Positions 60,241 through 60,973 of a DNA stretch of 64,000 nucleotides are shown piece after piece. Under the pieces are notes generated by a model. The model saw only the letters and a list, made by a program, of their open reading frames with translations. It was not told the origin of the DNA and made no database searches. A program made the position numbers and the translations under genes. Source of the stretch: a virus; the IMG/VR virus record IMGVR_UViG_3300037010_001382, positions 61,974-125,973 of that record, one strand, 5' to 3'. The stretch's first letter is position 1; the number at the start of each line of letters is the position of its first letter.

Positions 60241-60310
60241 CTAATTATTTTTATTAATTTGTACAAAGATACAAATGTTTTATTACATTTCCTAATTTAT
60301 TTAATTAAAT

Positions 60311-60335
60311 AAAAAAAGACAGCACAAGGCTGTCT
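60311..60335 (-). terminator. Terminator of the tRNA operon
   Basis: AGACAGC-cttgt-GCTGTCT followed by a T tract on the minus strand. Confidence 0.85.
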
Positions 60336-60344
60336 AATTAAAAG

Positions 60345-60415
60345 TAGTTCTACCAGGACTCGAACCTAGAATAAGGGAGTCAAAGGCCCTTGTGTTACCA
60401 TTACACCATAGAACT
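60345..60415 (-). tRNA. tRNA-Gln(TTG)
   Basis: AGTTCTA/TAGAACT acceptor, loop CTTTGAC, GGTTCGAGTCC. Confidence 0.9.
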
Positions 60416-60424
60416 ATATATGTG

Positions 60425-60496
60425 TGGAGAAGAAAGGAATTGAACCTTCTACGCAAGCCTCTTCAGAGCTTCACTCTACCGATGAGCTACATCTCC
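60425..60496 (-). tRNA. tRNA-Phe(GAA)
   Basis: GGAGATG/CTTCTCC acceptor, AAGCT-CTGAAGA-GGCTT, GGTTCAATTCC. Confidence 0.88.
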
Positions 60497-60501
60497 AGTA
60501 G

Positions 60502-60574
60502 CAGTCCATACGAGATTCGAACTCGCTCCGCCGACCGTGACAAGGTGGCATCTTAACCATTTGACCTATGGACT
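60502..60574 (-). tRNA. tRNA-Asp(GTC)
   Basis: AGTCCAT/ATGGACT+G acceptor, CCACC-TTGTCAC-GGTCGG, GAGTTCGAATCTC. Confidence 0.88.
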
Positions 60575-60621
60575 AGGTATGCTGTTCATACTTGGTAACG
60601 ATTATACAGCAAACTAAGATG

Positions 60622-60696
60622 TCTAGGTAACCGGATTCGAACCGATGAACACTCGCTTCCAATGCGAGGAAGTATAGCCATCTGCATGACACCTAG
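60622..60696 (-). tRNA. tRNA-Pro(TGG), atypical D arm
   Basis: CTAGGTG/TACCTAG+A acceptor, CTCGC-ATTGGAA-GCGAG, CGGTTCGAATCCG. Confidence 0.85.
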
Positions 60697-60700
60697 ATAT

Positions 60701-60737
60701 AATAAAAATCCCTCTAACAAATAAATGCTAGAGGGAT
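60701..60737 (-). terminator. Attenuator terminator inside the tRNA operon
   Basis: Minus strand ATCCCTCTAGCA-tttatt-TGTTAGAGGGAT followed by TTTTATT. Confidence 0.85.
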
Positions 60738-60764
60738 AGTTGGAACTTTAAAGAAACGTTCACA

Positions 60765-60845
60765 TTACAACATACCCTCTCCCTTATCAGGTTGATCCTG
60801 AAATATGCAAGGGAAAAAAGTAAAAGTAAAAGTAATGTTTGTCAT
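60765..60845 (-). CDS. Putative attenuator leader peptide MTNITFTFTFFPCIFQDQPDKGEGML
   Basis: 26-aa ORF translated by hand, between tRNA-fMet and the terminator; rich in F, P, Q and D. Confidence 0.75.
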   Translation of the reverse strand: MTNITFTFTFFPCIFQDQPDKGEGML

Positions 60846-60859
60846 TTGTATGTTTGTTG

Positions 60860-60931
60860 TAGCGAGACTGGAGATCGAACCCAGGACCTTCGGGTTATGA
60901 GCCCAACGAGCTACCGCTGCTCCACCTCGCG
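60860..60931 (-). tRNA. Initiator tRNA-fMet(CAT)
   Basis: Unpaired C1:U72, three G-C pairs in TTGGG-CTCATAA-CCCGA, GGTTCGA. Confidence 0.92.
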
Positions 60932-60941
60932 ATATATTTTA

Positions 60942-60973
60942 CAAAGGTAAATCAATTATTTGATATTACCAAA
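60942..60973 (-). promoter_or_regulatory. sigmaA-type promoter of the tRNA operon
   Basis: TTTG-N20-TACCTTTG, ending 10 nt before tRNA-fMet. Confidence 0.75.

Follow-up and report, generated by a model that had tools for sequence, protein, structure and literature searches.

The closest described counterparts of the element reported here are the leader-peptide attenuators of pheA (pheL), pheST (pheM), trp, his and leu in enterobacteria, together with the multivalent attenuators of thr (Thr, Ile) and ilvGMEDA (Ile, Val, Leu). T-box elements also respond to tRNA but bind uncharged tRNA directly, and translation is not needed. To our knowledge, all published examples of leader-peptide control concern amino-acid and synthetase genes. 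The tRNA genes of phages are mostly regarded as constitutive helpers for codon usage or as spares against tRNA-cleaving defences, and their regulation is hardly known. Here we analysed 64,000 nucleotides (nt) of the IMG/VR virus record IMGVR_UViG_3300037010_001382 (positions 61,974 to 125,973, the second half of the 125,973-base record; hereafter the window), in which a short open reading frame (ORF) and a terminator lie inside a tRNA operon. We read this element, with a rough probability of 0.55, as a ribosome-sensed leader-peptide transcription attenuator.

Published accounts place leader peptides in Proteobacteria, Actinobacteria and then Firmicutes (PMC2965389), and report 'strong clues' for leader-peptide attenuation upstream of amino-acid operons in Flavobacterium psychrophilum (PMC9723704); on the latter ground Bacteroidota may plausibly use such attenuation. 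Among published cases of tRNA genes that respond to stress, the trn operon of Anabaena sp. PCC 7120 comes nearest. Two papers describe it as an otherwise silent tRNA array that translational stress induces (PMC8421152; PMC10272220); its promoter is the point of control, with direct repeats and a repressor (PMC8421152). The words attenuat-, leader and terminator are absent from the main text of PMC8421152. Full-text literature searches turned up no account of tRNA genes under leader-peptide attenuation, nor any paper on Leptolyngbya phage Lbo-JY46, the cultured relative compared below.

A leader ORF and a terminator precede four tRNA genes

The original prediction, made from the sequence of the window, described a promoter, a tRNA-Met gene, a 26-codon ORF, an intrinsic terminator, genes for tRNA-Pro, -Asp, -Phe and -Gln, and a second terminator, in this order on the minus strand. 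All of these elements are real and present, as seen by ORF reading, ARAGORN, Rfam and a terminator scan, the last of which also recovered the proposed 12-base-pair (bp) terminator between leader and tRNA-Pro (its pairing 3:4). The features are:

60942..60973, minus strand: promoter TTTG-N20-TACCTTTG of the tRNA operon (motif match)
60859..60931, minus strand: tRNA-Met(CAT), initiator-like, upstream of the gate (ARAGORN; Rfam, 50.5 bits)
60765..60845, minus strand: leader ORF, 26 codons plus TAA, MTNITFTFTFFPCIFQDQPDKGEGML (ATG at 60845, TAA at 60767-60765; ORF reading)
60762..60838, minus strand: extended leader hairpin, or anti-antiterminator, whose core is pairing 1:2 of the original prediction (folding, -22.5 kcal/mol)
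60730..60780, minus strand: antiterminator 2:3, AGAGGG..GUUG with CAAC..CCCUCU (-13.9 kcal/mol; forms in the shortened transcript)
60697..60737, minus strand: intrinsic terminator with a 12-bp stem (60737-60708), 6-nt loop and T-run (-19.0 kcal/mol)
60621..60696, minus strand: tRNA-Pro(TGG), the first gated tRNA (ARAGORN; 29.9 bits, at threshold)
60501..60574, minus strand: tRNA-Asp(GTC) (ARAGORN, Rfam)
60424..60496, minus strand: tRNA-Phe(GAA) (ARAGORN, Rfam)
60344..60415, minus strand: tRNA-Gln(TTG) (ARAGORN, Rfam)
60308..60335, minus strand: terminator closing the tRNA operon (7-bp stem, 60335-60317; T7 run)

The terminator stem ends 11 nt, and its T-run 1 nt, before tRNA-Pro. This 11-nt gap is too small for a promoter, and a motif scan of the spacer between tRNA-Met and tRNA-Pro found no additional promoter motif; thus, the Pro, Asp, Phe and Gln tRNAs could be transcribed only by read-through. 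The promoter motif itself occurs 10 times in the window against 1.85 expected, a count reached in none of 100 shuffles. Terminator-like sites number 3 in 2.5 kb, compared with 1.0 +/- 1.0 in shuffles.

Codons 6-20 of the leader comprise five Phe, two Pro, two Gln and two Asp codons, so that 11 of these 15 codons belong to the downstream tRNA set, just as predicted. The start codon has an A at position -3 in an A-rich context and ranks at the 45th percentile among the gene starts of the phage. Genes of this phage start without Shine-Dalgarno sequences, in A-rich surroundings and with A at -3, the pattern that PMC6847099 gives for Bacteroidetes.

The unit is conserved in two relatives

Two relatives carry the unit: a 3,073-base metagenome contig (L003) and phage Lbo-JY46. 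In L003, a GroES homologue, the promoter and tRNA-Met come first; a 170-nt spacer containing the ORF MKNVNWHTFNPCDQFQPDTGEGML follows, then the terminator and tRNA-Pro, -Gln, -His and -Trp. In Lbo-JY46, the promoter is followed after 7 nt by the ORF MKITRQHTQFWFPTGTGLGML, a 13-bp terminator and tRNA-Pro, -Thr, -Phe, -Gln, -His and a tRNA with anticodon ACG (Arg; 47.9 bits), which carries no annotation in the record. The same promoter motif stands at the same place in L003, and also ahead of both leaders that we found in Lbo-JY46 (the second is described below). The distance from terminator to tRNA-Pro is 11-12 nt in the window and L003 and 7 nt in Lbo-JY46. Judged by the common GGUAUGUUR-UAA, the UUUAA that follows, the position of the terminator and the tRNA-Pro gene, the three leaders are homologous.

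The ATG and its frame, the leader hairpin, the antiterminator and the terminator are kept in all three, with compensatory changes. The window and L003 each start the ORF with an ATG 14 nt past the end of tRNA-Met; the leader frame is the only one open in both, and the ORFs differ by 6 nt in length. The leaders are 26 (window), 24 (L003) and 21 (Lbo-JY46) codons long, differing by whole codons, and each ends ...GML-stop, with the stop codon precisely where segment 2 (the leader hairpin's 3' arm) ends. By manual reading of the folds, 3 of the 3 window-L003 substitutions in this arm are compensated in the 5' arm. RNAalifold, run on its own MAFFT alignment, confirmed one of the three (AU to GC, columns 23/95) and gave another as a one-side change; it counted two-sided changes in 5 of 31 pairs for the two-sequence alignment and in 11 of 37 for the three-sequence one. 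The terminator shows four compensatory pairs between the window and L003. Its stem differs in Lbo-JY46 (GCCCAGG/CCUGGGU) and segment 2 has changed alongside (CUGGGCU, pairing as CUGGGCU/AGCCCAG). Homologues that keep the hairpin and lose the ORF or the codon match had been named as a case against the original prediction; neither relative is of this kind, and the hypothesis survived the comparison.

A claim that only an initiator tRNA stays outside the gate holds for part of the lineage. The tRNA-Met gene lies upstream in the window and L003, while the leader of Lbo-JY46 stands directly behind its promoter, so the arrangement is lineage-specific. Bacterial initiator tRNAs are marked by an unpaired 1:72 position, three G-C pairs in the anticodon stem and A11:U24, and the window tRNA-Met has all three (C1xU72 mismatch, three G-C pairs, A11:U24). 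Its orthologue in L003 is less certain to be an initiator, since it has U1-A72 and just two G-C pairs. The T-stem of the low-scoring tRNA-Pro also carries compensatory changes between the window and L003.

We considered whether the ORF is a functional micropeptide gene, with hairpins that merely end its transcript. A C-terminal G-x-G-M-L is common to the three leaders, but this shared end is identical as nucleotides and coincides with the switch segment, while the N-terminal two thirds vary freely in sequence and in length. The terminator of a peptide gene would, in addition, cut off four promoterless tRNAs. We consider the chance of a micropeptide next to negligible.

Alternative folds of the spacer

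The 162-nt spacer folds at -44.6 kcal/mol, compared with -25.8 +/- 3.4 kcal/mol for shuffled sequences (z of -5.6, matched in 0 of 200). At full length, each of the three leader RNAs forms the terminator together with a long hairpin that covers the ORF. In RNAs shortened so as to lack the terminator 3' arm, the leader hairpin instead gives up its 3' arm to pairing with the terminator 5' arm, again in all three. In the window the extended hairpin pairs codons 3-11 with AGAGGGUA...GUAAUGU (spacer positions 21-97); the L003 energies are -23.7 (leader hairpin), -20.0 (antiterminator) and -17.4 kcal/mol (terminator), and only 4 of 1000 dinucleotide shuffles give as good a 2:3 duplex there.

Mutually exclusive pairings had been proposed, and the true competitor of 2:3, which masks it, is the extended hairpin. 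The short 1:2 pairing first put forward (UCCCUU/AAGGGA) shares just one base with 2:3, and the two are therefore not mutually exclusive.

We modelled ribosome position by masking 28 nt around each A-site codon in transcripts cut before the terminator 3' arm. For the window, an A site anywhere in codons 1-18 gives the antiterminator core a probability of 0.82-0.97, which falls to 0 from codon 20 onwards, the stop included. L003 behaves alike: the probability is 0.82-0.97 for codons 1-16 and drops to 0 at codon 18 and beyond, and the ribosome-free RNA gives 0.07. By a looser measure (mean pairing of the terminator 5' arm), Lbo-JY46 shows the same shape, with 0.58-0.71 at codons 1-12, 0.02 at codons 14-16 and 0.11-0.43 from there up to the stop. 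A conserved RNA switch that gates the four tRNA genes is well supported.

A trans-acting factor could work such a switch whatever the position of the ribosome, either as a phage or host RNA-binding protein of the PyrR or TRAP type or as a tRNA in the manner of a T-box. The best sub-threshold Rfam match of the window is a PyrR binding site over its full length, which indicates the layout of a protein-type attenuator, and the apical loop UCAAC, which contains the Gln codon CAA, is conserved in the window and L003. However, the PyrR match (RF00515) reaches 31 bits where 54 are required, its loop motif is missing (10 model positions align to 7 unrelated bases), and neither L003 nor Lbo-JY46 has a PyrR match; we rejected it. 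The T-box was likewise rejected, with no match at E values up to 10 (window), 5 (L003) and 0.5 (Lbo-JY46). The apical loop is not conserved in Lbo-JY46. A trans-acting factor is decidedly improbable.

Leader codons compared with downstream tRNAs

Codons that match the tRNAs of the array make up 11 of 25 in the window leader (binomial p 0.0033), 6 of 23 in L003 (p 0.036) and 11 of 20 in Lbo-JY46 (p 0.0034), the background amino-acid frequencies for all three being those of the window phage genome. Among the 434 small ORFs of this genome, two reach the match fraction of the window leader. The matches depend on the frame, with 11 against 3 and 6 in the other frames of the window and 6 against 1 and 0 in L003. 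Codons 4-13 of Lbo-JY46 (TRQHTQFWFP) fall in the array set in 9 of 10 cases and represent all six array tRNAs.

The leaders also differ in the direction of their own arrays. L003 has Trp and His codons, and Lbo-JY46 has four Thr codons as well as His and Arg codons, each corresponding to the tRNAs that follow. The observed/expected ratio is highest, or tied highest, for the own array in each leader. For the six amino acids whose tRNAs differ between the arrays, the leaders hold 17 own codons against 12.0 expected (exact p 0.029). The proposal that leader composition tracks the downstream tRNAs is partly supported, with tracking of weak significance and with exceptions.

Similar units elsewhere

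Lbo-JY46 has a second unit (L117 4531-4669, minus strand), consisting of a promoter, MKNFNTYYSLSLSLSQPTQELYLCAY, a terminator and then tRNA-Leu(UAG) and tRNA-Leu(UAA). Its leader (YYSLSLSLS) is unrelated in sequence and has the same three pairings; Leu accounts for 5 of 25 codons (p 0.04). The genome of the window phage holds a further case outside the window (G000:C1:12617-12712), where a 15-bp terminator that ends 6 nt before tRNA-Asn(GTT) comes after the 14-codon ORF MANNKKGSLTLNVQ, which includes three Asn codons. In the model of this unit on a shortened transcript, the antiterminator survives a ribosome at codons 1-4 and is later lost.

Caulobacter phage CcrSC (L116 4078-4236, minus strand) has a 32-codon ORF, MSKTYRQFVRQIQFVRVNRTGLSRMVDGGTSI, a 14-bp terminator and tRNAs Val, Ile, Val, Gln, Asn, Arg and Phe, and 17 of the 31 leader residues are among the six amino acids of its array. 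This unit resembles that of the window in joining a promoter, a mini-ORF drawn from array amino acids, a terminator and tRNAs, but is unrelated in sequence. The window gate differs from it in following a tRNA-Met gene, in a phage of the crAss-like terminase neighbourhood.

Terminators or hairpins directly before tRNA genes also occur without such a leader. In the window, tRNA-Gly at 3535 (plus strand) begins 5 nt past the terminator of the preceding gene (about 3497-3534) with no promoter between, and would also depend on read-through. The crAss-like phage cr85_1 (L115 2563-2740, minus strand) has a promoter of the same type and a hairpin of about 16 bp with a U-run directly before an array of 18 tRNAs; no short ORF ends before this hairpin. 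Flavobacterium phage immuto and the crAss-like phages cr3_1 and cr60_1 showed no clear leader-terminator unit.

Weighing the readings and a proposed mechanism

The elements, their conservation with compensatory changes and the correspondence of codons and tRNAs in three leaders are observed. A number of results nevertheless count against a codon-specific attenuator set by the ribosome, and we collect them here, beginning with the RNA. The footprint folding suggested in the original prediction gives an antiterminator on upstream stalling in the shortened RNA, but at equilibrium in the full RNA the terminator wins at any ribosome position (0.97 in the window, 0.89-0.97 in L003), and therefore the switch can only be kinetic. 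Without a ribosome, the shortened RNAs favour the antiterminator in the window (0.64) and Lbo-JY46 (0.59), unlike the classical trp logic. The predicted 2:3 antiterminator is conserved with covariation in the relatives; in the window alone it is no better than chance, with 142 of 1000 dinucleotide shuffles giving as good a duplex. Finally, 28 nt of segment 2 (10 + 18) are identical between the window and L003, with no synonymous change.

The last two results would also suit an element that works independently of translation, such as a leaky terminator or a processing or stability hairpin that fixes how much tRNA-Met is made relative to the remaining tRNAs, with the ORF incidental. The tRNA-Gly gene behind the terminator of an ordinary gene and the cr85_1 array behind its promoter, long hairpin and U-run speak for the same explanation. 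Yet a fixed element needs neither an antiterminator nor a masking hairpin, and both are kept with compensation in three genomes. The ATG, the frame and the place of the stop persist despite a diverging 5' half of the peptide, and the codon enrichment is specific to the frame. We regard a translation-independent element as unlikely.

The remaining points concern the codons. All three enrichment tests draw on that single genomic background, and the p-values are not independent, coming from three related leaders only, of shared ancestry. Phe codons are also abundant in another frame of the window (the one with 6 matches), and the Phe richness is partly an effect of base composition. By raw counts, the L003 leader has more codons for the window's tRNA set (8) than for its own (6), and its Asp and Phe codons have no such tRNAs on the 3-kb contig. 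One Trp codon of Lbo-JY46 and four Thr codons of the window lack an array tRNA, the latter a caveat already raised in the original prediction and upheld here. Codon content is partly forced by pairing: the conserved UACUUUU (Thr-Phe) pairs with GAGGGUA, setting some Thr and Phe codons, and CAU pairs with the AUG of segment 2 in L003 and Lbo-JY46. The leader is thus enriched in relevant codons, with the enrichment partly confounded by pairing constraints.

These points could indicate that the same ribosome switch is a general gauge of translation speed, in which the codon match is incidental or stems from pairing and ancestry. In the model, stalling at each of codons 1-18 gives antitermination regardless of the amino acid encoded, the tracking of arrays is weak (p 0.029) with its exceptions, and several sensor codons are fixed by pairing. 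Against such a gauge stand the array amino-acid enrichment of the three leaders (p 0.003, 0.036 and 0.003) and that of unrelated leaders, namely SLSLSLS before tRNA-Leu, three Asn codons before tRNA-Asn and the CcrSC leader; His and Arg codons, moreover, appear only where His and Arg tRNAs follow. A purely general gauge is unlikely too, if a shade less so than a fixed element. Taking the codon-specific and general versions together, it is likely that a translating ribosome sets the switch. That the leader codons are tuned to the gated tRNAs is plausible on the basis of three related leaders and of analogies.

For the leader-peptide attenuator we infer the following course, in which the leader frame would be translated, translation coupled to transcription and the switch thrown kinetically. 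Transcription would start from the TTTG/TACCTTTG promoter, and tRNA-Met would always be made. The next 162 nt would present the 26-codon frame within a long hairpin, whose 3' arm (AGAGGGUAUGUUG) can switch to the 5' arm of the terminator. A ribosome that reaches the stop codon would cover the 3' arm, the terminator would form and transcription would end 11 nt before tRNA-Pro. A ribosome stalled in codons 1-18, mostly Phe, Pro, Gln and Asp, would open the hairpin, allowing the antiterminator to form and polymerase to read through into the four tRNA genes. The new tRNAs would then relieve the stall, closing a feedback loop. The stall itself may arise from starvation or from anticodon nucleases, the triggers named in the original prediction.

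A bolder and tentative view, which we hold to be possible, is that phage tRNA leaders form a codon-specific decoding gauge, a modular strip whose codons are exchanged as tRNA genes come to or go from the array. The strip would contain the Thr-Phe repeat in the window, Asn-Trp-His in L003 and Thr-Arg-Gln-His-Thr-Gln in Lbo-JY46. If so, the tRNA block would be transcribed only when its codons are read slowly and would then be shut by its own products. Depletion of host tRNA by defence nucleases, or host shut-off, might be what slows reading, and in this lineage the initiator tRNA ahead of the gate would keep the gauge working.

Genomic neighbourhood and database searches

Upstream of the element lie a GroES-like gene and a PhoH gene, and downstream are small genes followed by the large terminase, portal and major head genes. 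The best GenBank match of the window terminase is that of Lbo-JY46 (36.5% identity, full length), with the same synteny; the next matches are from Cellulophaga, Flavobacterium and crAss-like phages.

The motif TTTGGTAG-N-TAnCTTTG is common to the window phage (the 10 window sites), L003 and Lbo-JY46 (L117), and often lies just 7 nt ahead of an ATG, a distance that suggests near-leaderless mRNAs. By analogy, it probably serves the host enzyme. It resembles the Bacteroidota sigma-A (primary sigma) consensus, yet the relative Lbo-JY46 is recorded on a cyanobacterium.

A further feature of the tRNA operon is a conserved spacer directly after tRNA-Pro:

60575..60620, minus strand: conserved 46-nt spacer element, near-identical in L003 (2161-2206)

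This element contains a UGCUGU/ACAGCA stem and is kept although the next tRNA differs (Asp in the window, Gln in L003). Lbo-JY46 lacks it, having just 4 nt between tRNA-Pro and tRNA-Thr.

Several tRNA-like sequences and small units were noted in the other contigs. Lbo-JY46 has unannotated tRNAs at L117 3351-3421, 5617-5689 and 4286-4373 (minus strand), comprising the ACG tRNA, one (37.6 bits) that overlaps the end of the homing-endonuclease gene and a sub-threshold long-arm tRNA-like sequence. The last of these lies after the Leu unit and scores 27 bits against the tRNA-Sec model, with an anticodon read as UGA (Ser). The 272-nt gap between tRNA-Asp and tRNA-Pro of cr85_1 (L115 1978-2249, minus strand) resembles two unannotated long-arm tRNAs, one with CUA by eye. 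Between tRNA-Trp and the next gene of L003 (2440-2580), a unit of about 70 nt has its own promoter motif and terminator, with only weak matches to small-RNA models.

The window DNA occurs in microbial-mat and sediment sequencing runs, among which no RNA run is listed. Leader-covering pieces in four DNA runs, as contigs, had 0 differing letters. Searches of viral contigs with the GroES neighbour, as a single sequence and as an alignment, found no relative, and neither a three-motif attenuator pattern nor a 21-mer of tRNA-Pro had a match there. A 15-mer of segment 2 hit 28 viral-contig loci, all of them chance matches on inspection. With a PhoH alignment of 28 sequences (27 of 81 homologues plus the query), 80 viral-contig loci were kept, of which only L032 was moderately close (39%), with no tRNA nearby. 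Genome contigs gave no match, and metagenome contigs gave only L003 and L002, which ends before the array. A tblastn search of GenBank phages with the GroES-like protein and its 114-residue neighbour found no match; 20 GroES and 81 PhoH homologues are present in the protein database, a large number of them from contigs of 100-130 kb.

Comparison with known regulatory systems

If the proposed attenuator operates, a classical mechanism extends to a new class of target, the tRNAs themselves, and phages would have a means of sensing their decoding capacity directly, with feedback. From a simple signature in the sequence one could, moreover, predict which host tRNAs a phage expects to run short. 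The cultured Lbo-JY46, with two units, makes the idea testable at the bench.

The original prediction had assigned the locus to the trp/phe/pheST architecture. Its three-pairing layout with a leader agrees with this, while membership of an Rfam leader family does not follow and the targets differ. Scores against the Rfam leaders (Phe_leader RF01859, His_leader RF00514, Thr_leader RF00506) are 16.1 bits for the window, 25.8 for L003 and 25.0 and 25.0 for Lbo-JY46, below gathering thresholds of 49-55 bits; the best weak matches in L003 and Lbo-JY46 are to His_leader, Thr_leader and Phe_leader.

Like the pheL, pheM, trp, his and leu attenuators, the window element has a short codon-rich leader and three overlapping pairings, with the position of the ribosome, on a leader predicted to be translated, expected to decide between them. 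It departs from them in targeting tRNA genes, not biosynthetic or synthetase genes, in lying inside an operon after a tRNA, and in that several amino acids would be sensed at once. Its ORF, moreover, extends over both arms of the first hairpin, and its stop codon coincides exactly with the end of segment 2. As in the Anabaena trn operon, extra tRNA genes would be switched on when translation is impaired, but trn is regulated at the promoter. With the T-box it shares the coupling of tRNA status to a choice between terminator and antiterminator, and unlike the T-box it conserves a putatively translated frame. The window element is most like the multivalent thr and ilvGMEDA attenuators, in which a single leader monitors more than one of the amino acids whose availability the operon influences; it differs from these in that the sampled set equals the downstream tRNA species, and varies between relatives with the content of the array.

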